From the NCBI GenBank assembly GCA_016933575.1, contig JAFGAR010000005.1:1-64000 (forward strand): a DNA stretch of 64,000 bases, written 5' to 3'. The notes under the pieces are model-generated. The model had not been told where the DNA came from. It saw nothing but the letters and a program-made list of their open reading frames with translations, and made no database searches. Numbering within the stretch: position 1 is the stretch's first letter; every line of letters begins with the position of its first letter. The translations under genes were made by a program, and so were the position numbers. This stretch comes from Candidatus Thorarchaeota archaeon (lineage in GTDB: Archaea; Asgardarchaeota; Thorarchaeia; Thorarchaeales; Thorarchaeaceae). Below are positions 1-50,685 of this stretch, one piece after another.

Positions 1-415
1 CTTCGAAGTTGAGATGTCCCTGATTGGTCTTGAGCGTTGTCAGATTAGGCACCAGGCACTAGAGGCAGCTCGTGTTGCAGCTAACCGAGACCTGACCAAG
101 AAGGCCGGTAGGTTGAATTATCACCTTCGTATTCGAGTTAAGCCCTTACAGTATCTTCGTGAGAACAAGATGATTTCAGGTGCTGGAGCAGACCGTGTAC
201 AGGATGGAATGCGAAAGGCGTGGGGAAAAGTAATTGGTTCAGCTGCACGAATCAAACCAAACCAAGCCATTGCTACAGTCCGCATTAACCGCCAACACAT
301 CAAAGTGGGCATGGTTGCGTTAAAGAAGGCTGCAGCAAAGATGCCTACTCCCTGTAAGATTGTCTTTGACAAGATTGATCCAGAACTTAAACGTACTCTG
401 GGATATGGAATCTAA
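1..415 (+). CDS. rpl10e: 50S ribosomal protein uL16/L10e (5'-truncated by window edge)
   Basis: QIRHQALEAARVAANR and LRENKMISGAGADRVQDGMRKAWGK are L10e signatures; the frame is open to the window start. Confidence 0.95.
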   Translation, partial: FEVEMSLIGLERCQIRHQALEAARVAANRDLTKKAGRLNYHLRIRVKPLQYLRENKMISGAGADRVQDGMRKAWGKVIGSAARIKPNQAIATVRINRQHIKVGMVALKKAAAKMPTPCKIVFDKIDPELKRTLGYGI

Positions 416-21738: not shown

Positions 21739-23709
21739 TTGGAGTTGTATCAACTGGCTAGAGGAAGACATAGTCGCAAGAAGTTTCGAAGAGGCCATGC
21801 ACCCTATTTAGCAAAGATTCGGTTCTTTTGGTGTGACTCATGTAATGTACCAAGAATTGCTGAAACCAAATGCAGCACTTGCGACACGATTCCTCGAAAA
21901 GTGGAACTCTCTCCTCCCGGGGATCCTTTCCCAGCCATGGATGGTCATCTCAAGAGGATCATTGATACAATCGATTCACAGTTTGGAGAAGGCGTCGGAC
22001 TTGCAATTATTCCCCCCACAAAGACTGTAGTCCTAAACAAGGTGTCTTCTCTCGATGCAATGTACGAGATAGTCTTGGACGGTCACATTCTTGGGAGACT
22101 GCGTTTCGATATTCCAAGCCGTCATTACACGTTTCTTCTGTCACTTGAAGGTGCTCGTCGAATAGGGAAGGAAAGCAAGGAGAAATGGGTCTCTCTGCAT
22201 GATGGTGTGTTAAAGTACCTTAAAGATGGATCCAACTTGATGCTTCCTGGAGTCCAGGGATGTGACTCTGGAATTGAAGTAGATGACGAGGTCTGGCTTA
22301 TCGACTCAGATGGTCTTGTTGTAGGTTCGGGCATTGCCCGAATGAGTGGAGTTGCTATGGCAAGAGAAACCAAGGGGTTTGCAGTAAAGATACGTGATGT
22401 ATCTGATGCAGTTCCTTCTGCAGTAAATCTGAAATATGCAACATGGGATGAAGCTGTTGCTGCAAATGAAAATGACCTTGATCGCATAGAGAAAGAAGCC
22501 ATTACTTTTGTCCGAAGAGTCATCGAGAAGAATGCTGGTCTACCCGCAGTTGTGGGATTTAGTGGTGGAAAGGACTCACTTGCAACTTATCTCATTGTTG
22601 AGAACGCTACAAGCGAGAAACCACCTCTCTTTTTTATGGATACAGGTATTGAACTTCCTGAAACTGTTGAGTTCATTGATAATTTTGCCAAGAAGCGAGA
22701 TGTACAGATAATCGGTGAAAAAGCTGGTGAACGCTTTTGGGAGTCTGTTGATATCTTTGGCCCTCCCGCGAGGGATTTTCGGTGGTGTTGCAAGATTCTC
22801 AAACTAGGTCCTGCAGCTACTGCGATTGCTGAAGAGATTGGTAGTGAAACCATCTCCTTTATGGGGCAGAGAAAGTTGGAGTCATTTCAACGTTCAATAG
22901 AACCGCGAATAACAGAAAATCCATGGGTTCCCGGTCAACTTTCAGCCAATCCCATTCAGAATTGGAATGCGTTGGAGGTATGGTTGTACATATTTCAGAA
23001 GCAAGAAGACTTCAATCCGCTCTATAATCGAGGATATCATCGAATGGGTTGTTATCTATGTCCTGCATCTCCACTAGCTGAGATTGAGAGTCTTCGCCAA
23101 ACCCATCCCGACCTCTATAAACGATGGGCGACGAAGATGGCAGACTGGGCACAGAGATATGGCTTTCCTGATGAATGGTTTGAACTTGGGTTCTGGCGAT
23201 GGAAAACACTCCCTCCAGGACAATTAGACCTTGTTAACAGTCTTGGTCTCAAAATCACATCAACCCGTCAAAGTGCTGGTGAGCAGATTGAGCTCAATGT
23301 GACAAAGGGTGTTTCTCCCTGTACGAAGTCTGGATTCAGTCTTGAAGGTTCATTTTCATCCGGCATAGATCTCAACAGAATCTCTAGAATCATGCCGATA
23401 TTTGGCACTACAAAAATATCTGAGGAACTTGGTGCCTTAAGAACAGTATCTGGAGCGAATCATATCTCTATATTCAGTTCTGGATCCATTGTCGTACGCG
23501 GTCCGAGCGAAAAAGCTGTTGAAAGACTAACAGAAAAGCTACACCGGGCTGTCAAACGTGCGCTTCTTTGTCAAGCCTGTGGTTCATGCGTTCCACAGTG
23601 TCAACATGGTGCGCTAAATCTTGATGAAGGTAAGATATCCGTTGACGAGAGCAAATGCACAGGTTGTCTTGATTGTGATACTTGGCCATGTCCGACCTAT
23701 CTTACATAG
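21739..23709 (+). CDS. PAPS-reductase-family protein with Zn ribbon, PUA domain and C-terminal 4Fe-4S domain
   Basis: FSGGKDS PP-loop, RWCCKILKLGP, RMGCYLCP, CQACGSCVPQC and CTGCLDC; start position uncertain. Confidence 0.85.
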   Translation: MELYQLARGRHSRKKFRRGHAPYLAKIRFFWCDSCNVPRIAETKCSTCDTIPRKVELSPPGDPFPAMDGHLKRIIDTIDSQFGEGVGLAIIPPTKTVVLNKVSSLDAMYEIVLDGHILGRLRFDIPSRHYTFLLSLEGARRIGKESKEKWVSLHDGVLKYLKDGSNLMLPGVQGCDSGIEVDDEVWLIDSDGLVVGSGIARMSGVAMARETKGFAVKIRDVSDAVPSAVNLKYATWDEAVAANENDLDRIEKEAITFVRRVIEKNAGLPAVVGFSGGKDSLATYLIVENATSEKPPLFFMDTGIELPETVEFIDNFAKKRDVQIIGEKAGERFWESVDIFGPPARDFRWCCKILKLGPAATAIAEEIGSETISFMGQRKLESFQRSIEPRITENPWVPGQLSANPIQNWNALEVWLYIFQKQEDFNPLYNRGYHRMGCYLCPASPLAEIESLRQTHPDLYKRWATKMADWAQRYGFPDEWFELGFWRWKTLPPGQLDLVNSLGLKITSTRQSAGEQIELNVTKGVSPCTKSGFSLEGSFSSGIDLNRISRIMPIFGTTKISEELGALRTVSGANHISIFSSGSIVVRGPSEKAVERLTEKLHRAVKRALLCQACGSCVPQCQHGALNLDEGKISVDESKCTGCLDCDTWPCPTYLT

Positions 23710-26404: not shown

Positions 26405-27781
26405 ATGGTTGACCATCACATGCTTGCAGCGATTAGTCTAAGCATCTATGAATACAGGAAGTATCTAGTGCTTACACTGGCAATTTCAATGATTGCTATT
26501 CCTATCGCGAATGGCTTGGTCATCCAGCGAGACCGAAACCGGAATGAGATGTATGGTGAAGCATTCTGGATCTATGGTTTCACGGTCTATAATATGGATG
26601 ATGATCAGCTAGCAGAAAATCTCGATACTTATTATGGCTTCAATTTTAATGACGGCCTTCACACATTGCCTGAATATCTAGGTGGCGTGAAATACGAATA
26701 TCCTGTCTTTGGTCTGATATTCTTCGCTATAGCCACATGGTTATTTCCAGGGTCTGGCCCTGACAGTCTTCAACCCTTATGGCTGAATTTTCTCTTGGTC
26801 TTGGTATTCAATCTTAATCTGGCTCTACTAGCGATTCTCCTTCGTGATAAATTGGAAAAGGTACGGTGGGCTCGTTTATTCTTTGGGGCCTATTTTGTGT
26901 ATGGTCTTGTAATGGCTGCTGCTGGAGGAAAGCTTGAACCTATTGTTGATTGTCTGCTTTTGATGTCACTTGTCCTTTGGAAAGAGAAACAACATGGTAA
27001 GTCTATGTTTGCCCTTGGTCTGTCTGTCCAGACGAAGGTCTATTCCTTTGTGGTATTTCCAATGTTCTTTCTTATCAATCCTGTCTCATCTATCTGGTTT
27101 ATTATCTCAATGTTCCTAACTGTGTTTCCAGTGTTCTTTGGCGCAAGCTTTGACTCTCTGATTTCCCATCTATTCAATCTCTCAAGCTATAGTTCATTCA
27201 TAGTCAATCCTCTATTTCCAGGTCTAGCATTCAGTACACCAGACCTCTATTCGCCAGACCCTACGGCATCTTATGTGTGGATTGCGGCATTGATTCCTCT
27301 GATAATTTATCTATCCTTTCTGGTCCTCACAATCCGTCGCTATATACCAAAGAAGGAGGAATTCAGCGATTTATCCAGAATTGAGAAGATTCGCGCATTA
27401 ATTCCATTGTACCTATACCTCATTCCTGGATCGTTGTTCCTATTTCGCTGGGTAATGCCTTGGTATCTTCTCTGGTTTGGACCTGTAATAGTCCTCTTCA
27501 CAAAGAACGAGCAGGCTGTAGGGTATCTTAAACAAATCACTCTAGTAGGATTGCTCTATGTGCTTGGTATCCTTGTCAATTGGCCCTATTTCATTACAGG
27601 CCCATTACCAGCATTCTTCACCCATTTTCCAGCCAGCGCTCCCGAAACTATTGGTGGTGTGATTCTTCTATCAATCTTAATGGCTGTAGCATATTTTCTT
27701 TGGAAATTAGAGATTGACCGCAGAGAAAGGAAATCTGTGTTCGTGAAAGAAGCAGAGGCTCGCGGGGAGCTCATTATCTAG
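26405..27781 (+). CDS. Polytopic GT-C-fold glycosyltransferase-like protein (GT87/PIG-M-like)
   Basis: YEYP loop after first TM, GKLEP, LGLSVQTKVY, PWYLLW; about 10 TM segments. Confidence 0.6.
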   Translation: MVDHHMLAAISLSIYEYRKYLVLTLAISMIAIPIANGLVIQRDRNRNEMYGEAFWIYGFTVYNMDDDQLAENLDTYYGFNFNDGLHTLPEYLGGVKYEYPVFGLIFFAIATWLFPGSGPDSLQPLWLNFLLVLVFNLNLALLAILLRDKLEKVRWARLFFGAYFVYGLVMAAAGGKLEPIVDCLLLMSLVLWKEKQHGKSMFALGLSVQTKVYSFVVFPMFFLINPVSSIWFIISMFLTVFPVFFGASFDSLISHLFNLSSYSSFIVNPLFPGLAFSTPDLYSPDPTASYVWIAALIPLIIYLSFLVLTIRRYIPKKEEFSDLSRIEKIRALIPLYLYLIPGSLFLFRWVMPWYLLWFGPVIVLFTKNEQAVGYLKQITLVGLLYVLGILVNWPYFITGPLPAFFTHFPASAPETIGGVILLSILMAVAYFLWKLEIDRRERKSVFVKEAEARGELII

Positions 27782-40468: not shown

Positions 40469-41513
40469 TATTGCTCAAGCAAATCGTAAACTCTGTGAAT
40501 TAGGTCACAGAATTCTCGAACCCATTCTTGATGATAAATTCCCTATCATTGAGATTCCAGATAGGAACACAAGTAATATCGAATATGAAACCAGTCGTAA
40601 TCGATTCGTGTTAGGTTCATCAGTTACTATCAGGGACTCCAGTAATATCAAACATATCAGAAGTTTTGCACAACTTGCATGGGTAGCCTCTTTTGCAAAA
40701 CGGCTTTTAGCAGCCTCACGAACAAGTTCTCTTCGTGATGTATACTATTCCAGCGAAGCCTTTGGTGTAAATTTCAAGGACCAAGCGGAATCTGATCGAA
40801 TAGTGTTGGATTTGGAGTGTATAACTGGGCTTTCCCGAGAATCCTTTGGTATATTTCCAGACGAACATTCTTCTGTCTATGGAGATGTTCAGATGAGGTA
40901 TACAGTCCCAGGGTATAGTGGCCGTGAGATTGACTTAACTATCAGTCCAGATGGACTTCCTATTGGTCCTGCACTAATGACTGCTGAACCAATCCGGACA
41001 AATGCAGAGATAATCCTAGCTGTGGAGTCTGGAGGTATGTTCTCTCGTCTTATTGAAACCAGGGCTTGGGAGCGATTCAAAGCTATATTGATTCAACTTG
41101 GTGGTCAACCACCTCGTGCAACTAGGAGTCTAATACGGACTCTGCATGATGAATTAGATCTTGCTGTGTATATATTCACTGATGGTGATCCCTGGGGAAT
41201 GCACATAGCCCGTGTTATCATGTCTGGCAGCGCAAATTCTGCTCATATTGAAGGCTTAACTACGCCAACAGCAAAATGGATTGGAGTCACTTCTCAAGAC
41301 ATCGAACACTATTCTCTCCCCTCCGAAAAGATGAGTGATTCTGACCTCAAACGGCTCGATGAGCTCTCAAGAGACCCTCGATATTCTAGTAAGGAGTGGC
41401 AAATGCATATTGATGGTTTCAGAAAACTCAGAGAAAAGGCTGAACAACAGGCATTTAGTAGATATGGAATGGATTTTGTAGTAGATACATACCTACCTGA
41501 GAAATTGGTCTAG
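40461..41513 (+). CDS. top6A: DNA topoisomerase VI subunit A (Spo11 homolog)
   Basis: LRDVYY catalytic Tyr, TOPRIM E and FTDGDPWG, KAEQQA. Confidence 0.95.
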   Translation: MNDIAQANRKLCELGHRILEPILDDKFPIIEIPDRNTSNIEYETSRNRFVLGSSVTIRDSSNIKHIRSFAQLAWVASFAKRLLAASRTSSLRDVYYSSEAFGVNFKDQAESDRIVLDLECITGLSRESFGIFPDEHSSVYGDVQMRYTVPGYSGREIDLTISPDGLPIGPALMTAEPIRTNAEIILAVESGGMFSRLIETRAWERFKAILIQLGGQPPRATRSLIRTLHDELDLAVYIFTDGDPWGMHIARVIMSGSANSAHIEGLTTPTAKWIGVTSQDIEHYSLPSEKMSDSDLKRLDELSRDPRYSSKEWQMHIDGFRKLREKAEQQAFSRYGMDFVVDTYLPEKLV

Positions 41514-42565
41514 ATCCAGCCAACTCCATGTGGGTATCCAATCAGTAGTAGGAGCACTGCACCATAGACTAAGATTGCTTGTAACAATAGCAAGATTTGG
41601 ACATTTCTCTTTTCTGTCATATCTTTGAAGAAATGTGGCAATATCCAATAGACTGTAAATGGACCAACCACTTCCAATGAGCCATCTTCTCTTGGTTTAG
41701 CAAACTTAACCCATTGCATTTGTTTTCGCTTTGCGTAAAATCTATAGACGATATAGAGGAGGAAATTGAGTCCAAATGGGATATACATGATTATAGCAAG
41801 CCTATCCATATTTCCAATGATAAGGGCTGCTGCCATTGTTGCGCCCATAGGTAAAGTCCCTACGTCTCCAGTCAATATCTTTGCTGGATATCTATTAAAA
41901 ATCAAGAAACCAATTGAAGCCCCTAACAGGGCTGCGGCTACGACTCCTGCCTCCATCTGTTCAGTAGTTATTGTATGACTATCAAAATAGGGTATAAGGA
42001 GAACGAATGTAACAAGTCCTGAGGCATTAATGGCACTCAGTCCAGCCTCAAGTCCATTCATCCCCGCATACATATTGGTTGAATCAATGATGAATGTCAT
42101 CATGAGGGGAACAATTAGAAGTGCATAGAATAGTCCGAAATTGATAGTCCCAATGAATGGAATTGATATTGTTGGTGTTCCTACACTCATGGCTGCCATT
42201 GGTATGGATGCAACCAATGGAAGCACGATTTTCGTTCTATTCTTGAAATCCAAGTTATCATCCAAGAGTCCAATCATCCCCGCCATTAGGATTGAAACCA
42301 AAGCGGCGAATAATCCTACCATCTCGATCTCAAGACTCTGGAAGGTTGTCAACCCAATAATAACAAGCAACGCAAAGACAATTGCAAAGAGGATGACATA
42401 TCCTCCTCCTTTTGGTATCTCAGGTCGATCTAGCTTATGAACATCAGTCCCAGTGACACCCTTTTCCTTGAGGATTTTTATCGCATTAGGTGTAAATAGC
42501 ACAACGACAATAAACGACACAATAATGGCGATTAGTATTTCCAGCAAACCTTCACACCTATTCAC
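41510..42565 (-). CDS. aglH: UDP-GlcNAc:dolichol-phosphate GlcNAc-1-P transferase (AglH/DPAGT1, MraY-like)
   Basis: GTDVHK...IPKGGG, GLLDD, NMYAGMNGLEAG, FNRYPAKILTGDVGT; polytopic; start may be a few codons downstream. Confidence 0.85.
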   Translation of the reverse strand: MNRCEGLLEILIAIIVSFIVVVLFTPNAIKILKEKGVTGTDVHKLDRPEIPKGGGYVILFAIVFALLVIIGLTTFQSLEIEMVGLFAALVSILMAGMIGLLDDNLDFKNRTKIVLPLVASIPMAAMSVGTPTISIPFIGTINFGLFYALLIVPLMMTFIIDSTNMYAGMNGLEAGLSAINASGLVTFVLLIPYFDSHTITTEQMEAGVVAAALLGASIGFLIFNRYPAKILTGDVGTLPMGATMAAALIIGNMDRLAIIMYIPFGLNFLLYIVYRFYAKRKQMQWVKFAKPREDGSLEVVGPFTVYWILPHFFKDMTEKRNVQILLLLQAILVYGAVLLLLIGYPHGVGWI

Positions 42566-42735
42566 TCAAAACCAATCAGTACAGTTTTGACCTTTTCGGA
42601 CAGGGAGCAAGTTCGTGCATGCTTTCAACGTCCGAAATCTATTTTAACGAACCCGAAGCTCGAGCGCATCATCCATGCTCTAGTGGACCCACCACAAACA
42701 TGGAGATTTACCCCAATCAAACACGGTGATTTGCT

Positions 42736-45723
42736 TTGAGCCAAATGAACAAACGGATAGGGACAATCATACTGCTAGCTCTCGTAGTGACAAGCAGTAT
42801 TCTTGCACTGAGCCCCATCTCAGATACAACAGAAAATAACTACATGGTTCAGAAAATTGATAATGGATTTGCCTTGGCTGAGTCATCGATGAACATATCG
42901 ATTCCATATGTAGACAATCACTATGGCTCCGCAGATGGATTAATAGATCCCACAGAGTATGCTTATCATTTTACAGATCCAGTGACTGGGGTTAAATCAT
43001 ATTTTGAGCACAACGGTACAATGTTATTCGTAGGTCTTGAAGCCCTGACTCACGGTTGGATTGGGTTTGCTTGGCAGAACTATACCTCTAATTTCACAAC
43101 CGCTGGTCTGAATAACAGTGATGTTATTGTTGGATACGCTCCTGGTACAACTACTACAAATGTATGGCGCGTTATAGGCACAGATGCTGTGACTGTACAT
43201 TATGTTCTAAGTCTTAGAAATGGTACAACAATCCAAGACGGATTTGTCCCCGATGAGACCTCTGTTGATCCAATTGAGGAAGCTGGAGTCTTGCAAGCCT
43301 ATAAGGATGCAATCATCGGCATGAGAATTGGAGAAGTTCGACACTTCGTCATTCCTGCTGCTGACGCATATGATACATCTGGTCATGAGCTCTATGGACA
43401 AGACCTAATCTATGATATCACTCTGACACGCATCTACAGGTCTGGAATCACGAGGACACTTGACCCTACAGATCAGAGCCTTATTATCTACAGTGATGAA
43501 CATGGTACAAACACCTTCCAACATCTTCCTGATGCTGATCAATCCCAGATTATTCAAGCCGACGGTTCTGATAATGGAACAATAACGCAGCTTGAATATA
43601 TCATTAAACTGAACAGTACAGACCCATATGACATCCCTCTGTTCAACAATACAGATTTGACATATCCCTTCATCTTTATGTATGGCCTTACTGAAGAACT
43701 CAATGGACTTCCTGTTCAACATACATATTGGACAAATCCCGCCAAAGTTCAGATTGTACCCAACACCCCTCCTACAATGGTAGTTATTTCTCCTGAGGCT
43801 GATTCAACAATCCAATGGGTTTCTACATTGAAGCTTAATGCTACAAATGACTATGTGAGACGAGCTTTCTATCAAGTAGATAATGAAACCTGGGAAACTT
43901 TGACATACAATTTCCTTACAGATCTCTGGGAGAAGAGCGTTGATTTCTCCTTATACGATGAGGGTTTGCATGTACTAAGTTTCAATGCATCCGATACATC
44001 AAACGCAACGGGTCTTGTATCGTTTAATTTCACCATTGACCGACCATACACGCCATTGCTGGGTATGAAATTGAGAGTAACTCGAAATCTCATAACGATG
44101 CCAAACTTCGGTAGTAGAGCTGAAGATAGCTATGTTGTTACTAATAACGGGTCAGCTCCAATCAATTCAATAGACATATACCTTCCTGACGAGTATGAGT
44201 CCAATATTCTTGATTTTGTAGTAACAGATAGTAGCGGTGGTACTGAATTCCCTGCCATTAGGCTATCAAATGCAAATGGACTGGTACGCTGGAGAGTACA
44301 CTTTCCAGACCCTGTTGGATTCCAAGAATCTCTCTCATTTAAGACAATAACATACCTACACAGTTTGTTCTATCTGACGGATGAAGATACATTTGAATAC
44401 CGAATCTCTTTCATTAGATATCCGATTCTGCCATATGTACTTACCAGCGCAGAGTTCACTCTCAGTTTCGAATCAGGAGGTTCTCTAGTTCCAAACGAAC
44501 CATCTCCTAACTTGAAAGAAACAAACGTCGCACCTTATACAACATCACCATTCTCTGTATTGCTTCGATTATTCACAGAGAACATCATTGCCAGACGTAC
44601 TACTACAATCGTTGTAGATGCGTGGGGCTGGTTATCCTATGAAGAAGTAATCTCATTAGAAAATACAGGCGGTGGTGAAGTAGTTACACTTCCAATGACA
44701 CTACCTGCATACTCCGCATCAATTCGGATTTACGACGAAGTAGGTGATTTGGCTTCATCCCAGACACAGCCGGGAGTAACAACTGCTGACTATAACGAAA
44801 CACGACAGCTGGAAATAAAATTGGCAACGGATCGATTTGGACCGAATGGATTCCAGCCCTCGTTCAAATATACATTCAAGATCTCTTATGTCGTTCAAGC
44901 AAGCGCTTACCAGAGTGCAGCAACTGGTGGAAGTCTGCTCGAGTTTCCAATGGCTCTTCTAGGCGATGTCCTGATTCTTGTGCATGATATCAAAATTGTC
45001 ATGACTACATCAGTTCAAGCATTTGACATCGCAGAAGGTCACCATATAATGTACGGAGTCTTTGATACCTCCTACCTCTATGAATATACCAACGAAACAC
45101 AACGAAATCCTGCAGAACTCTATGTCGTATACCAAACCACCCTCGGAGCTGCTGCAAGACCTGCTCTGTTCTCGCTGATAATTGGAATTATCGCAGCATT
45201 GTATGTTTCATATAGAAAAGTGGAGCTACCTGAGGAGGTTGTTGGTCCTCATATCGATGACACTGATATTTATCAAAAACCAAAACAGGTTGGAGCCCCT
45301 GCAGATCTTCTATCTGAGTTTGCTAATCTTTATTCTCGAAAGACCACTCTTAACATAGATTTGGAGAAACTTGATGCCTCCAGACGAAGAGGGAAGATAA
45401 AGAAGCGCGAATATATGATGCGTGAGAGTGACCTGAAAGCACAGATCGAAGAGATTGATAAGAAACTGCCCTCAGTCAAGGAAGAACTAACGCGCTACGG
45501 AGCAAGATACCGGGATCTCATTGCACAGTTAGAGCTTCAGGATGAGCGGATAGAAGGTGCAAAAGCTGGTCTTCGTCAACTCCTCATGCGAAAGAAGAAG
45601 CAGAGGATTAGTCGAGTTGCTTTTGAAAAGTCCCGTCAAGATTACTTGAAGACAATCCAGAAAGCAACAAGTGCTACAGACAGAATTCTGCTCTCAATTC
45701 AGGAAGAAGCCGGAGAAGCCTAG
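42736..45723 (+). CDS. Signal peptide + DOMON domain with inserted FKBP domain + Ig-like + ribophorin-I (OST1)-like domain + TM + cytoplasmic coiled coil
   Basis: GWIGFAW...DVIVGY (DOMON); VTVHY...AIIGMRIGEVRHFVIPAADAY (FKBP); IVVDAWGWLSYEEVISLENTG and IYDEVGDL (RPN1-like); TM RPALFSLIIGIIAALYVSY; many NxS/T sequons. Confidence 0.75.
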   Translation: MSQMNKRIGTIILLALVVTSSILALSPISDTTENNYMVQKIDNGFALAESSMNISIPYVDNHYGSADGLIDPTEYAYHFTDPVTGVKSYFEHNGTMLFVGLEALTHGWIGFAWQNYTSNFTTAGLNNSDVIVGYAPGTTTTNVWRVIGTDAVTVHYVLSLRNGTTIQDGFVPDETSVDPIEEAGVLQAYKDAIIGMRIGEVRHFVIPAADAYDTSGHELYGQDLIYDITLTRIYRSGITRTLDPTDQSLIIYSDEHGTNTFQHLPDADQSQIIQADGSDNGTITQLEYIIKLNSTDPYDIPLFNNTDLTYPFIFMYGLTEELNGLPVQHTYWTNPAKVQIVPNTPPTMVVISPEADSTIQWVSTLKLNATNDYVRRAFYQVDNETWETLTYNFLTDLWEKSVDFSLYDEGLHVLSFNASDTSNATGLVSFNFTIDRPYTPLLGMKLRVTRNLITMPNFGSRAEDSYVVTNNGSAPINSIDIYLPDEYESNILDFVVTDSSGGTEFPAIRLSNANGLVRWRVHFPDPVGFQESLSFKTITYLHSLFYLTDEDTFEYRISFIRYPILPYVLTSAEFTLSFESGGSLVPNEPSPNLKETNVAPYTTSPFSVLLRLFTENIIARRTTTIVVDAWGWLSYEEVISLENTGGGEVVTLPMTLPAYSASIRIYDEVGDLASSQTQPGVTTADYNETRQLEIKLATDRFGPNGFQPSFKYTFKISYVVQASAYQSAATGGSLLEFPMALLGDVLILVHDIKIVMTTSVQAFDIAEGHHIMYGVFDTSYLYEYTNETQRNPAELYVVYQTTLGAAARPALFSLIIGIIAALYVSYRKVELPEEVVGPHIDDTDIYQKPKQVGAPADLLSEFANLYSRKTTLNIDLEKLDASRRRGKIKKREYMMRESDLKAQIEEIDKKLPSVKEELTRYGARYRDLIAQLELQDERIEGAKAGLRQLLMRKKKQRISRVAFEKSRQDYLKTIQKATSATDRILLSIQEEAGEA

Positions 45724-45840
45724 ATAGTCTACCTATCTAGACTCTCCCAGTTTGTTTTTGCGAGGCAAGCTAGAAAATTCACTATTCGCAAGTCTTATCA
45801 AAACAGACGGATTTCTTCTATGTCCCTAAGAGTGATAGTT

Positions 45841-46692
45841 ATGAGTACTCCGACCATCGACCGTGAATCAATCAGAGCACGAGATCTAATACCTGATGAA
45901 TCTAAAGCCCTTGAGATGTATCAATATCTGACCGGCTCACCCAGGGTGCAATCATATCTGCGAACTGCAAATAGAATGGCTGTATCCAGATTAGGTTATA
46001 CTGACCATGGCCCGGTCCATGCAGAGGTAGCTAGTTGGAACGCACTCAAGGCATTTGCTATTATTGAAGATACTTTCAAACCGAATATTGTAGCTGAAGG
46101 TATTGGGGACCTTGATGACGCACGTCTGGTTGTTCTCGCATCTACCTATCTCCATGATATTGGTATGGTTGTGCATCGCAACGAGCATAATCAAGCAGCA
46201 ATACAGCTAGCCAGTCCAATTCTTGAATCAAAACTGCTGGATATGTATGGCGACCCTGCAAAGGCCACTGATATCCTCTCATTCATCTTTCATGGCATCT
46301 ACGCTCATGATGATGACACGCAATGTCTTACACTTGAAGCAGGAATCACTAAGATTGGTGATGGTTGCGATCTAACCAAGGGTAGGACGATTGTGCCATT
46401 TCAGCAGGGAAAGGTGGATATCCATTCAGTTTCAGCAATGGCTATCAATAGTGTAATCCTTGAGAAAGGGACTGAAAAGCCACTTCAGATTACCGTTGCA
46501 ATGGATAATCCTGCAGGAGTATTCCAGGTTCAGGCAGTACTTGAGAAGAAATTATCCACTTCAGGTCTCAAGGACCACGTTGATATTGATGTTGAAGTCA
46601 ATGGTGAGCGACTTGTACTCTCTCATGTAAAGCGTCTCTTCAGAGTACAGATGACAGAATCTGACAATGGTCTCAGTGTCAAAGAAAAATAG
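45841..46692 (+). CDS. HD-domain phosphohydrolase
   Basis: RLGYTDHGPVH, YLHDIG, HD, GDGCDLTKGR, DIHSVSA. Confidence 0.85.
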   Translation: MSTPTIDRESIRARDLIPDESKALEMYQYLTGSPRVQSYLRTANRMAVSRLGYTDHGPVHAEVASWNALKAFAIIEDTFKPNIVAEGIGDLDDARLVVLASTYLHDIGMVVHRNEHNQAAIQLASPILESKLLDMYGDPAKATDILSFIFHGIYAHDDDTQCLTLEAGITKIGDGCDLTKGRTIVPFQQGKVDIHSVSAMAINSVILEKGTEKPLQITVAMDNPAGVFQVQAVLEKKLSTSGLKDHVDIDVEVNGERLVLSHVKRLFRVQMTESDNGLSVKEK

Positions 46693-47713: not shown

Positions 47714-49117
47714 ATGGAGTACAAACATCCTTGGATTCCAATCACACGCGATATAGAGAAAGAGATGCTTGAGTCTATAGGAAAAAGAAGCTTGGAAGAT
47801 CTCTTCTGTAACATTCCTGAGAAATTTCGGGTGAATAGAAATCTTGCTCTTCCTGATTCTCATACAGAGTATGAGGTCAGTAGAAGAATCCAGGAGCTTG
47901 CTGGTAGTAATAAGTCCGCAATTAATGGGGATGTATTCCTTGGTTCCGGTGTCGGGATGCATTATATCCCCGCAATTGTACCAGCATTGGCTGGGAGGTC
48001 TGAATTTGTGACATCCTATACAAGTTATCAGGCTGAGATAAGTCAAGGTATGCTTCAGACCCTTTTTGAATATCAAAGTCTGCTTGCAGAGATTCTCCAG
48101 ATTGACATTGTGAACTCATCAATGTACGATTATGCAACAGGTGTTGCTGAAGCTGCAAGGATGACAGTACGTGTAAATAAGAAACGTTCCAAGTTTTTAG
48201 TTCCAGGTACGATTAATCCCGAACATTATTCTGTGATACATACATACACAGAGCCTGCAGATATTGAGATTGTGAAAGTAGATTATGATCGTAACACAGG
48301 TCTACTCTCTCTCTCCGACTTGAAGGCAAAGATGGATGATACGGTCGCAGGGGTGTATATCGAAAATCCAAGTCATCTTGGTTTTATAGAGACCCAAGTC
48401 GATGAGATCTCGAAGATTGTTCATGATCATGATGCGTTGTTCGTGGTTGGTGTTGACATTCTCTCACTTGGAGTATTGAAACCCCCCGGGGGTTATGATG
48501 CTGATATTGTGGTTGCTGAAGGGCAACACCTTGGTGTGCCTATGAGCTATGGTGGACCCTTGCTTGGTATTTTTGCTTGTAGGAATGACCGGAAGTTGAT
48601 CTATCAGATGCCTGGTCGTCTTGTCGGAATGACCCGGACCGAAGAGGAACCTTATGAACGAGGTTTTGTCTTAACACTGAGTCCAAGAGAACAGCACATT
48701 CGTCGGGAAAAAGCAACTAGTAACATCTGTTCTAATCAGGCTCTTGTTGCAGTTACTGCTGCAGTGTATATGTCTACCCTCGGTCCTAGTGGCTTGCAGA
48801 CCTTGGGAGAAACCATTGCATTGAAAGCAAATTATGCTGCAAAGCAACTAAATACCATTAAAGGAGTAAAAGCTCCTGCAATTGGTTCATTCTTTTGGAA
48901 AGAGTTTGTAGTTCAATTTGAAAATGGAGTCACTGCTAGTCAAGTCCACACATCACTCTTGAAACAAGGAATTCAAGGTGGAAAAATACTCACAGATGAA
49001 TTTCCAGAACTAGGAGAGGCAATGTTGTTCTGTGTGACGGAGATTCACAGTCAAGAAGCAATAGATAATCTCGTTCGGGCAGTTGAACTAACAATGAGTA
49101 ATGGGGGTGCACAATAA
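47714..49117 (+). CDS. gcvPA: Glycine cleavage system P protein subunit 1
   Basis: YTSYQAEISQGMLQ, NSSMYD, REQHIRREKATSNICSNQAL. Confidence 0.96.
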   Translation: MEYKHPWIPITRDIEKEMLESIGKRSLEDLFCNIPEKFRVNRNLALPDSHTEYEVSRRIQELAGSNKSAINGDVFLGSGVGMHYIPAIVPALAGRSEFVTSYTSYQAEISQGMLQTLFEYQSLLAEILQIDIVNSSMYDYATGVAEAARMTVRVNKKRSKFLVPGTINPEHYSVIHTYTEPADIEIVKVDYDRNTGLLSLSDLKAKMDDTVAGVYIENPSHLGFIETQVDEISKIVHDHDALFVVGVDILSLGVLKPPGGYDADIVVAEGQHLGVPMSYGGPLLGIFACRNDRKLIYQMPGRLVGMTRTEEEPYERGFVLTLSPREQHIRREKATSNICSNQALVAVTAAVYMSTLGPSGLQTLGETIALKANYAAKQLNTIKGVKAPAIGSFFWKEFVVQFENGVTASQVHTSLLKQGIQGGKILTDEFPELGEAMLFCVTEIHSQEAIDNLVRAVELTMSNGGAQ

Positions 49118-50685
49118 TGAACAATAAATCAGAAAATCGTTCAGCGGTGAGACAGGCAAAATGGATTGAGCCCCTTATTTTTGAAAAGAGCACACCCGGG
49201 GTCATTGCCCATCAATTTCCAATAGCTGAGGCGATAATAAGAAAGGCGGTAGATCTTGGCAAAGTTCTACCCTCAAATATGAGACGAAAGACACTACCAA
49301 TGATACCTGAGGTCTCTGAACCAACCGTTGTGCGTCACTTCACAAGACTCTCTCAGATGAACTATTCAGTGAGTCTTGGTACTTATCCTCTGGGAAGTTG
49401 TACAATGAAATACAATCCTGAAGAGAACAATTGGGCGGCCTCCCAACCCGGTTTTTCATGGCTTCATCCACTTCAGGATGTATCTTCCACACAGGGAGCC
49501 CTTGAGATGATGTGGGAACTCGAACAATGGTTAGGCGAACTTACAGGCATGGATGCGGTCACATTGCAGCCTGCTGCTGGAGCTCAAGGCGAATGGACAG
49601 GAGTGATGATGATGCGCGAATATCATCGGTGTGTCACCAATGAGTGTGAACAACGATATGAAATGCTCATTCCTGATGCTGCTCATGGTACTAATCCTGC
49701 ATCTGCTGCCATGGCTGGCTATGAAGTAGTCGTTCTCCCCTCTAGTAATGAGGGCCTTGTGGATATTGACGCATTAAAAGCAGCGGCTGGACCTAAGACT
49801 GCAGGTCTAATGCTCACGAATCCTAATACCATCGGAGTCTTCGAGAAAGATATTGCTGAAATTACAGGGATTGTTCATGATGCCGGTGGTCTAGTGTATT
49901 ATGATGGAGCCAACTTCAATGCGATCATGCACAAGGTCAGGCCTGGTGACATGGGTTTTGATGTTGTGCATCTCAATTTGCACAAGACATTCTCAACGCC
50001 TCATGGTGGTGGTGGGCCCGGTGCAGGTCCTGTAGGTGTTAAAGAAAAACTTGCAGATTTCCTACCTGTACCTCGTATCATTCAGAACGAGAATGGACTA
50101 TTTGATCTGGATTACAACAGACCGGAATCTATTGGCAAAGTGAAGTCTTTCTATGGAAACTTTGGAGTTCTAGTGAGAGCATATGCCTACATGTACTCAC
50201 TTGGAAGGGAGGGTCTTAAAAGAGCTTCAGAAGTTGCTGTCCTCAATGCCAATTATATTGCTAATCATGTTCGGAAAATTCCTGGATTTACTTTACCATA
50301 CTCTCAGGATGCACCTCGGATGCATGAATGTGTCATCTCTGCAAAGGAATTGAAGGAAAAGACAGGCGTGACCGCAATGAACGTTGCAAAGCGCCTATTA
50401 GACTTTGGAATTCATGCTCCAACTGTGTATTTCCCTCTGATTGTACCCGAGGCATTAATGATTGAACCTACGGAGACAGAATCCAAACAGGAACTTGACT
50501 ATCTCATAGATGCACTCCGACAAATCTCCCGTGAAGCCCACGAGAATCCTGACCTAGTAAAGACAGCACCTCATTCCACGTCAGTACGTCTCCTTGATGA
50601 GTACAGATCAGCTCATCCTAAAACACTCACTCTGTCTTACAAGATGTATCTGGAACGCAAAAATGCAGGAGAAGAAGAAGACTAA
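49117..50685 (+). CDS. gcvPB: Glycine cleavage system P protein subunit 2
   Basis: PLGSCTMKYNP, HLNLHKTFSTPHGGGGPG, MIEPTETES. Confidence 0.97.
   Translation: MNNKSENRSAVRQAKWIEPLIFEKSTPGVIAHQFPIAEAIIRKAVDLGKVLPSNMRRKTLPMIPEVSEPTVVRHFTRLSQMNYSVSLGTYPLGSCTMKYNPEENNWAASQPGFSWLHPLQDVSSTQGALEMMWELEQWLGELTGMDAVTLQPAAGAQGEWTGVMMMREYHRCVTNECEQRYEMLIPDAAHGTNPASAAMAGYEVVVLPSSNEGLVDIDALKAAAGPKTAGLMLTNPNTIGVFEKDIAEITGIVHDAGGLVYYDGANFNAIMHKVRPGDMGFDVVHLNLHKTFSTPHGGGGPGAGPVGVKEKLADFLPVPRIIQNENGLFDLDYNRPESIGKVKSFYGNFGVLVRAYAYMYSLGREGLKRASEVAVLNANYIANHVRKIPGFTLPYSQDAPRMHECVISAKELKEKTGVTAMNVAKRLLDFGIHAPTVYFPLIVPEALMIEPTETESKQELDYLIDALRQISREAHENPDLVKTAPHSTSVRLLDEYRSAHPKTLTLSYKMYLERKNAGEEED

Follow-up and report, generated by a model that had tools for sequence, protein, structure and literature searches.

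The 64,000-nucleotide window analysed here, from contig JAFGAR010000005.1 of a Candidatus Thorarchaeota metagenome-assembled genome (MAG), carries an open reading frame (ORF) of 995 aa whose product is almost certainly a homologue of OST1/ribophorin I of the oligosaccharyltransferase (OST). Its C-terminal 560 residues are canonical Asgard OST1. In front of them lies an extension of ~410 residues, composed of a DOMON sandwich with an FKBP domain nested in it and of an Ig-like spacer, which is an order-wide and order-specific addition. Because the extension is restricted to one order, it represents a lineage-specific addition and not an ancestral, eukaryote-like trait. Asgard archaea have already been reported to possess Ost1/ribophorin I and Ost3 (PMC10307638), and Asgard OST1/ribophorin I with its ribosome-binding tail counts among the established eukaryotic signature features. 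The OST1 core and the tail belong to what was known, and the N-terminal cassette, as a domain-architecture variant of one order, is new.

An earlier note on this DNA, made by eye, had described the protein as a ribophorin-I-like chain fused to DOMON, FKBP and Ig-like domains, lying head-to-head with a gene for an AglH/DPAGT1-like enzyme across 170 bp. Both ORFs and their spacing are present as it described them (Table 1), and its order of domains was recovered, the four domains called by eye being found with profile methods in the orthologues. The note knew of no description of such an architecture, and our full-text literature search likewise returned no account of a ribophorin-DOMON-FKBP combination.

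The ribophorin I core

A database search with the 995-aa protein returned 223 homologues. The best 120 of these are 890-996 aa long, with 49-72% identity; the named ones among them come nearly all from Candidatus Thorarchaeota MAGs and are annotated as 'FKBP-type peptidyl-prolyl cis-trans isomerase' or as 'hypothetical', and several bear a precomputed PF04597 (Ribophorin_I) assignment. As the genes carry only such names, name-based surveys may miss the Thorarchaeal OST1, and its identification corrects the database annotation. We aligned 32 orthologues and scanned each of them against Pfam. The query itself gave no match to PF04597 at E <= 0.1; the family matched 11 of the 32 orthologues (50-72% identity; best E 9.6e-10), and short-form homologues linked via the family profile match it at 6e-17 to 9e-11.

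The fold of this part was analysed with an AlphaFold2 model of residues 340-830 (mean pLDDT 84.8). In a Foldseek search the top eight matches were RPN1/Ost1 chains of the human and yeast OST (E 6e-22 to 4e-16, TM-score 0.50-0.56), followed by integrins as the next fold class at 1e-10. With VIA-align (VIA), human and yeast RPN1/Ost1 reached Z 24.8-29.0 over 355-366 aligned residues at 14-16% identity, led by human RPN1 (8b6l_O, Z 29.0, 366 residues) and with yeast Ost1 at Z 27.9, against about 11-13 for the next fold class. RPN1 28-459, comprising the entire luminal domain and the transmembrane helix (the latter aligned with model helix 464-487), is matched by model residues 97-491 (protein 436-830). 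The proposed ribophorin I identity is therefore upheld, with Z 25-29 over ~360 residues for RPN1/Ost1 versus about 11 for aminopeptidase-N. Two other sandwiches were tried for the C-terminal half and rejected: the N-domains of M1 aminopeptidases (aminopeptidase-N) align with a single subdomain (~155 residues, Z about 11), and the Deinococcus S-layer HPI protein aligns with the Ig part only.

Hydropathy places one transmembrane helix at about residues 803-826, in addition to an N-terminal hydrophobic anchor, as had been read from the sequence. The outer part is indeed rich in sequons: 17 N-x-S/T sites occur, all of them in the ectodomain, compared with 7.6 +/- 2.5 expected from 2000 shuffles, none of which reached 17. 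An extracellular, glycosylated ectodomain fits this excess and its confinement to one side of the membrane.

The source genome encodes a single OST1, one STT3 (926-aa ORF, contig 21) and one OST3/6, and a search for a second OST1 or a DOMON-FKBP paralogue within it found none at E <= 0.001. On contig 21, the STT3/AglB gene and the OST3/OST6-family gene lie ~3.5 kb apart (22039-23283 and 26837-27151; L013, L014), forming a second N-glycosylation locus apart from the OST1-aglH pair.

The cytosolic domain

A profile search of the PDB with the 32-orthologue alignment gave 8WHN, a 'Ribophorin 1 superfamily protein', as the top match (E 1.7e-7), with profile positions 833-970 aligned to residues 14-152 of the chain. 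The domain crystallised in this entry is the cytoplasmic part of OST1 from the Lokiarchaeal Prometheoarchaeum syntrophicum MK-D1, a four-helix bundle that has the topology of the cytosolic domain of human RPN1 and pulls down ribosomes (PMC11417166). What had been called a basic cytoplasmic coiled coil is instead the OST1 cytosolic four-helix bundle, and on this profile match the tail of the 995-aa protein is the predicted OST1 ribosome-docking domain. It is also the most conserved region of the protein, with a mean column conservation of 0.86 versus 0.62 for the RPN1 body.

Asgard OST1s such as that of MK-D1 share with the Thorarchaeal protein the ribophorin-I ectodomain, the single transmembrane helix and the basic cytosolic four-helix bundle, but lack its N-terminal DOMON-FKBP-Ig extension. 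Human RPN1 and yeast Ost1 (8b6l, 6s7o, 6s7t, 8agb, 6ezn) share the luminal fold and the transmembrane helix, and RPN1 likewise has a cytosolic helical ribosome-binding domain; they too are without the extension.

The N-terminal DOMON-FKBP-Ig module

Among the domains of the extension, the FKBP is the one that Pfam recognises directly: FKBP_C (PF00254) matches query residues 149-230 (E 4.4e-9, 37 bits versus a cut-off of 21.1) and is found in all 32 orthologues (best E 2.8e-10). The Ig domain gives a weak Big_7 match on the query and is matched in half of the orthologues (16/32, best E 6.4e-11); in structure, residues 1-98 of the 340-830 model align with Ig/FN3-like modules at Z 10-13.6 (VIA). 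The DOMON family PF03351 showed no match on the query at E <= 0.1 in the Pfam scan and matched 9 of the 32 orthologues, with a best E of 6e-5, these being E-values taken without reference to the Pfam cut-off of 32.7 bits. Such low scores are expected, since the FKBP insert splits the DOMON domain.

A model of residues 28-345 (mean pLDDT 70.8, FKBP part above 85) allowed both folds to be recognised. Foldseek returned FKBPs first, with FKBP13 at 2.2e-5 and FKBP11 of a translocon structure also among the matches. In an exhaustive VIA comparison, DOMON-superfamily structures ranked above the FKBPs and were aligned across both flanks of the insert, spanning model residues about 25-318 (protein 54..342 = model 27..315). 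They include EBDH gamma (2ivf_C, Z 13.2, 163 aligned), NxrC (7b04_C, Z 13.0, 184 aligned), CBM9 (1i82, Z 11.7), the DBH DOMON (4zel_B, Z 10.8) and the CDH cytochrome domain (1d7c, Z 10.0). The FKBP matches, which cover 84-93 residues and reach Z 9-10.3, fall on model residues 114-211. The two structural claims of the earlier note are borne out by these results: the insert folds as an FKBP (Pfam E 4.4e-9, FKBP13 in Foldseek, VIA Z about 10), and the flanking halves form a single DOMON-type sandwich (VIA Z 10-13 across the insert).

FKBP13 is the best PDB match of the insert, and an affinity to FKBPs of the endoplasmic reticulum (ER) type is possible. When its 99 aa were used as a query for free-standing close relatives, only a fragment of an orthologue was returned. 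The nearest ESM Atlas cluster to the module is 100% PF03351 (TM 0.46/0.49), and the nested DOMON-FKBP form occurs in no large ESM Atlas cluster.

Column conservation in the module (0.72-0.80) exceeds that in the RPN1 body (0.62), and the DOMON N-terminal half is the most conserved segment of the ectodomain (0.80), with D67, D71, E74 and W113 among the conserved residues. A whole order has fused a putative foldase domain and a putative ligand-binding sandwich to OST1, and both are more strongly constrained there than the body of ribophorin. In the region of the DOMON C-terminal half, T260, Q262, H263, D266, D279, E287, D296, D299, M315 and W332 are invariant.

Distribution of the extension and stand-alone paralogues

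We examined the distribution of the architecture in a sample of 201 Asgard genomes. Full-length matches were present in 43 of 43 genomes of the source family and in the one genome of its sister family (1/1), that is, in all 44 of the order. Outside this order the module was not found on OST1 in the sample: matches cover the OST1 part only, in ORFs of ~580-630 aa.

Searching 1.84 billion representative proteins with the family profile gave 2054 matches, in four groups. Two representatives, P0123 and the divergent P0126 (975 aa), stand for all full-length forms. Dozens to hundreds of Asgard proteins of 550-630 aa match only profile positions ~435-977; those checked bear PF04597, and these proteins are canonical Asgard OST1. 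In addition, giant Ig-repeat proteins match the Ig domain, and a few proteins of 420-590 aa match only positions ~11-425.

Stand-alone cassette proteins were also recovered (P0130, P0133, P0134, P0279, P0282 and P0285; 567-595 aa), all Thorarchaeal where named. The three inspected, P0130, P0133 and P0134, consist of a signal anchor, the DOMON-FKBP-Ig cassette, a further Ig-like region and a C-terminal transmembrane anchor of their own, which in P0133 and P0134 is preceded by a Thr/Ser-rich stretch. The two paralogue loci examined (L005:6001-7761 and L006:798-2501) are unlinked to OST1, and P0133 lies among carotenoid biosynthesis genes. Such paralogues are rare, occurring in 1 of the 43 source-family genomes of the sample. 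In a tree of the N-terminal modules they form one group (support 96/77) among the source-family OST1 modules, with the sister family as outgroup. This topology hints that they arose from OST1 through a partial duplication; with a very long outgroup branch (3.24) and an uncertain root, we do not rely on this polarity.

In other Asgard families, ORFs of 250-580 aa match the DOMON N-terminal half only (positions ~15-129), on contigs C117, C102 and C54 of G025 and at G102:C5:222536-222856. These ORFs may encode relatives of the cassette in which the DOMON domain is uninterrupted.

The FKBP pocket and the DOMON ligand site

The FKBP pocket was mapped through a HMMER alignment to FKBP13, to which the FKBP12 numbering of the pocket (Y26, F36, D37, R42, F46, V55, I56, W59, Y82, F99) was transferred. 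In this numbering, Y26 (Y156, invariant), V55 (V185) and Y82 (Y212, invariant) are kept. Changed are I56 (L186), W59 (Y189), F99 (Y226), F36 (Ile), D37 (Q167), R42 (P172) and F46 (S176), and the substituted residues are invariant or nearly so across the family. Such partial conservation makes prolyl-isomerase catalysis uncertain. Human FKBP11 uses its pocket to bind a protein, CCDC134, and not for catalysis (PMC12804085).

In the alignment, the DOMON N-terminal half is marked by GWIGFAW and AGLNNSDVIVGY, and the domain has motifs of the GW[IV]G...SD[VI] and DG..D..EY types. The heme-ligating Met of AIR12-type DOMON domains lies in a motif M-x-G-S-[QD], and the position corresponding to it appears to be Leu125, in AGLNNSD, in agreement with the earlier note. 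The Thorarchaeal domain shares the fold of the DOMON superfamily (EBDH gamma, NxrC, CBM9, DBH, CDH; Z 10-13.2, 139-184 aligned), but differs in being interrupted by a complete FKBP and in having Leu in place of the presumed heme Met. A profile search of the PDB with the DOMON N-terminal half gave chance matches only (BMP6 and ApcE, E about 1), and therefore offered no sequence-level route to the ligand residues.

Proposed role of the fusion

We propose that the Thorarchaeal OST1 would be a subunit of the oligosaccharyltransferase-translocon, in which its double beta-sandwich would pack beside the catalytic STT3/AglB and its basic cytosolic four-helix bundle would dock the translating ribosome. 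Through the Ig spacer and the DOMON sandwich with its nested FKBP, which the order has added at the N-terminus, OST1 would place a chaperone or prolyl isomerase of the FKBP type, together with a sandwich that binds a ligand other than heme, over the extracellular Sec/OST exit, where newly exported, newly glycosylated chains would meet a foldase at once. The neighbouring AglH/DPAGT1-type enzyme would make the first lipid-linked sugar. The foldase activity, the ligand and the position in the complex are what we infer in this proposal, and its truth as a whole, an OST1 core with a foldase or chaperone head at the translocon exit, we consider evenly balanced. A more specific form is doubtful: OST1 might act as a ribosome-anchored 'glycosylate-then-fold' station, its DOMON reading the fresh glycan attached by STT3 or holding the lipid-linked donor and its FKBP folding the chain, which would make it a prokaryotic, fused counterpart, of independent origin, of the glycoprotein quality control of the ER (malectin-ribophorin I plus FKBP11-OST-A).

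The closest parallels come from eukaryotes, where the lectin malectin and FKBP11 are recruited in trans, in contrast to the fusion seen in the Thorarchaeal protein. FKBP11 is a single-pass FKBP, tethered by a transmembrane helix and with a basic, ribosome-contacting tail (PMC12804085), and at the OST-A translocon (9n9j/9ygy) it likewise places an FKBP on the non-cytosolic side of the ribosome-bound Sec61/OST. It differs in being a separate protein of 201 aa, recruited in a substrate-dependent manner, with a pocket that binds CCDC134; as the homology shown is confined to the FKBP fold, the likeness is probably convergent. Malectin is described as a glycan-binding sandwich that takes part in ER quality control through an interaction with ribophorin I in animals and plants (PMC9144812), and the Thorarchaeal OST1 resembles this pair in having a ligand-binding beta-sandwich module on the luminal or extracellular side. 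Malectin differs in its fold family, its non-covalent association and its known glycan specificity, and no malectin stands among the structural matches listed here. The bacterial membrane-tethered foldase PrsA offers a further parallel to the proposed role. Judged by its architecture, the Thorarchaeal OST1 resembles such arrangements in a covalent form, one that would have evolved independently. If the module does act on nascent exported proteins, it would constitute a natural experiment indicating that the coupling of folding with glycosylation and translocation is favoured outside eukaryotes too, and it provides a compact soluble ectodomain for testing OST-proximal chaperoning.

Several observations weigh against this proposal. 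The source genome is a MAG with 85.5% completeness and 6.9% contamination, and the model of the N-terminal module is of moderate confidence (pLDDT 70.8). The FKBP pocket, as judged from the alignment, appears to be only partly conserved, non-canonical yet conserved. The DOMON-FKBP-Ig cassette also occurs on non-OST, membrane-anchored Thorarchaeal paralogues and can accordingly function without OST1. Finally, the order of genes NMD3-eIF1A-RIO1-KH-top6B-top6A-GT4-OST1-HD-Trm112-GcvP is collinear across the order, and because the whole neighbourhood is kept in this way, the adjacency of the GT4 and OST1 genes inside the order is weak evidence on its own.

One alternative, the reading of the earlier note, is a glycan-specific quality control in a single protein, in which the DOMON would be a lectin for the fresh N-glycan or the lipid-linked donor and the FKBP would act on those glycoproteins, as a calnexin- or malectin-like checkpoint. 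In fold, the DOMON sandwich comes nearest to the CBM9/EBDH-gamma branch, one member of which is a genuine carbohydrate-binding module (1i82, Z 11.7), the presumed heme Met appears to be replaced by Leu125, and the module itself is sequon-rich. A precedent exists in animal malectin, which docks on ribophorin I (PMC9144812). However, the two best structural matches, EBDH gamma and NxrC, are heme proteins, H263 and M315 are invariant, and the cassette is found on non-OST paralogues too; we regard such a checkpoint as unlikely.

The same paralogues bear on a structural or envelope role, in which the Ig-DOMON-FKBP stalk would serve as scaffold or spacer and link the OST/translocon to the cell envelope or to partner proteins of the surface, with the FKBP pocket as an interface that is neither catalytic nor chaperoning. 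The cassette is reused on membrane-anchored surface proteins with extra Ig-like domains and Thr/Ser-rich stalks, the substituted but invariant pocket residues Q167, P172 and S176 would suit a fixed binding partner, and FKBP11-CCDC134 provides a precedent (PMC12804085). The classical FKBP core (VHY, GM, AY, Y226) is, however, highly conserved, which would agree just as well with activity, and we give this role a low probability, similar to that of the glycan checkpoint. Far less probable is a redox DOMON that would bind heme b, as EBDH gamma, NxrC or the CDH cytochrome domain do, and transfer electrons outside the cell, with no relation to glycosylation. The two best structural matches (Z 13.2 and 13.0) are DOMON-like subunits that bind heme, and M315, H263 and the near-invariant H329 are possible ligands, but the canonical Met position appears to be Leu, no redox partner genes were seen in the neighbourhood of the loci examined, and the fusion to OST1 offers no rationale for electron transfer.

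Table 1. Positions in the window of the OST1 and GT4 genes, the domains of the OST1 protein and the elements of the intergenic region.
Feature	Position	Strand	Details and basis
OST1/ribophorin I gene (homologue, almost certain) with N-terminal DOMON-FKBP-Ig extension	42736..45723	+	995 aa, TTG start (probable)
GT4/polyprenyl-phosphate GlcNAc-1-P transferase gene, AglH/DPAGT1-like	41510..42565	-	351 aa, GTG start
Divergent intergenic region	42566..42735	.	170 bp
N-terminal signal peptide or signal anchor	42736..42816	+	residues 1-27; hydropathy peak at residues 6-30
DOMON N-terminal half	42892..43155	+	residues 53-140; VIA matches; motifs ADGIIDPTEY, GWIGFAWQN, AGLNNSDVIVGY
FKBP domain nested in DOMON sandwich	43156..43431	+	residues 141-232; Pfam, Foldseek, VIA
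Linker and DOMON C-terminal half	43432..43761	+	residues 233-342; VIA alignments run on to model residue 315-318
Ig-like spacer domain	43762..44040	+	residues 343-435; Big_7 in orthologues, VIA
Ribophorin I/Ost1 ectodomain, two beta-sandwich domains	44041..45141	+	residues 436-802; VIA, Foldseek, PF04597 in orthologues
Transmembrane helix	45142..45213	+	residues 803-826; hydropathy; aligned with RPN1 transmembrane helix
Cytosolic basic helical domain, homologue of the OST1 ribosome-binding four-helix bundle	45214..45720	+	residues 827-995; profile match 8WHN
Conserved block A	42584-42599		alignment
Conserved block B	42615-42666		52 nt; CCGAAA + TCTATTTTAA, resembles a B recognition element (BRE) and TATA box for the + strand
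Leader hairpin	42668-42707		individual folding
GGTGAT Shine-Dalgarno	42725-42730		followed by the conserved TTG start

The neighbouring GT4 gene and its linkage to OST1

The divergent neighbour had been taken for an AglH/DPAGT1-type GlcNAc-1-P transferase, and the searches agree. It matches Pfam Glycos_transf_4 (PF00953) with E 4.6e-30 and 105 bits, its best solved relatives are human DPAGT1 (1.2e-16) and, further off, MraY (1.1e-11), and NCBIfam MraY models fall far below their cut-offs. The genome holds no other PF00953 match. The protein thus belongs to the same family as AglH/ALG7/DPAGT1 (UDP-GlcNAc:dolichyl-phosphate GlcNAc-1-P transferase), with DPAGT1 closest, and is encoded by a single-copy gene; its sugar-donor and lipid specificity are predicted.

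In every locus of the order examined, the GT4 and OST1 genes are arranged head-to-head, including the divergent P0126 locus, where the downstream synteny has changed. We cross-read the positions of the two genes in the same 201 Asgard genomes, in almost all of which GT4 is single-copy. In family f19 they are divergent and adjacent (closed genome G038). In f9 they lie on the same strand, 1.6-5 kb apart, in at least 17 genomes, and similar distances occur in f12 (about 3.5-4.5 kb), f16 (about 4 kb) and f13 (about 5 kb). They are more than 370 kb apart in f3 (closed genomes) and on different contigs in f6, f7, f15 and f21. Linkage within ~5 kb is consequently seen in seven Asgard families, and the adjacency to aglH noted earlier proves to be conserved, in every locus of the order examined and as OST1-GT4 proximity in f9, f12, f13, f16 and f19. 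Since the linkage recurs across families, it is old and widespread in Asgard archaea and no peculiarity of the fusion. It supports a functional association of OST1 and aglH in N-glycosylation; it shows association and not co-regulation, although the two genes may be co-regulated. This widespread linkage also represents a genomic marker for Asgard N-glycosylation loci.

The divergent intergenic region

The region between the two genes was analysed in an alignment of 14 orthologous loci. Its conservation is far beyond that predicted from the proteins, which are 54-72% identical; the conserved blocks A and B are listed in Table 1. Block B is followed in every orthologue by a leader hairpin (z -2 to -4), whose stem sequences differ from one orthologue to another. 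RNAalifold on the MAFFT alignment of the leaders found no consensus structure, and the hairpins, which emerge only from the folding of single sequences, are therefore not formally supported by covariation. A comparison of the intergenic region with Rfam gave no match. The assignments of promoter and start sites in this region are putative, including a TATA box at about 42638-42647 in a possibly shared promoter. The true start of OST1 is probably the TTG codon, as judged from its conservation and its position 5 nt after the GGTGAT Shine-Dalgarno, and because the orthologues are without the ATG that stands at codon 4 in the window.

Flanking genes

Upstream of the pair lie the genes for topoisomerase VI subunits B and A, and the 3' end of the minus-strand GT4 gene overlaps top6A by 4 nt. 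Downstream of OST1 come the genes for an HD-like protein and for both P subunits of glycine cleavage. The gene of the HD-domain phosphohydrolase-like protein (290 aa, 45820-46692, +) has the same orientation as OST1 and lies 96 bp beyond it; the protein is identified by a Pfam HD match of E 0.0024 and an ESM Atlas feature score of 0.98 to HD clusters. Its position is kept in all Thorarchaeal loci examined, including the P0126 locus, in which other downstream synteny is lost. The GcvP1/P2 genes are located at 47714-50685, ~2 kb downstream of OST1, and also directly beside short OST1 genes on two other Asgard contigs (L010 and L011). OST1 thus has a second synteny partner that is old, although a functional link between the two is not obvious.

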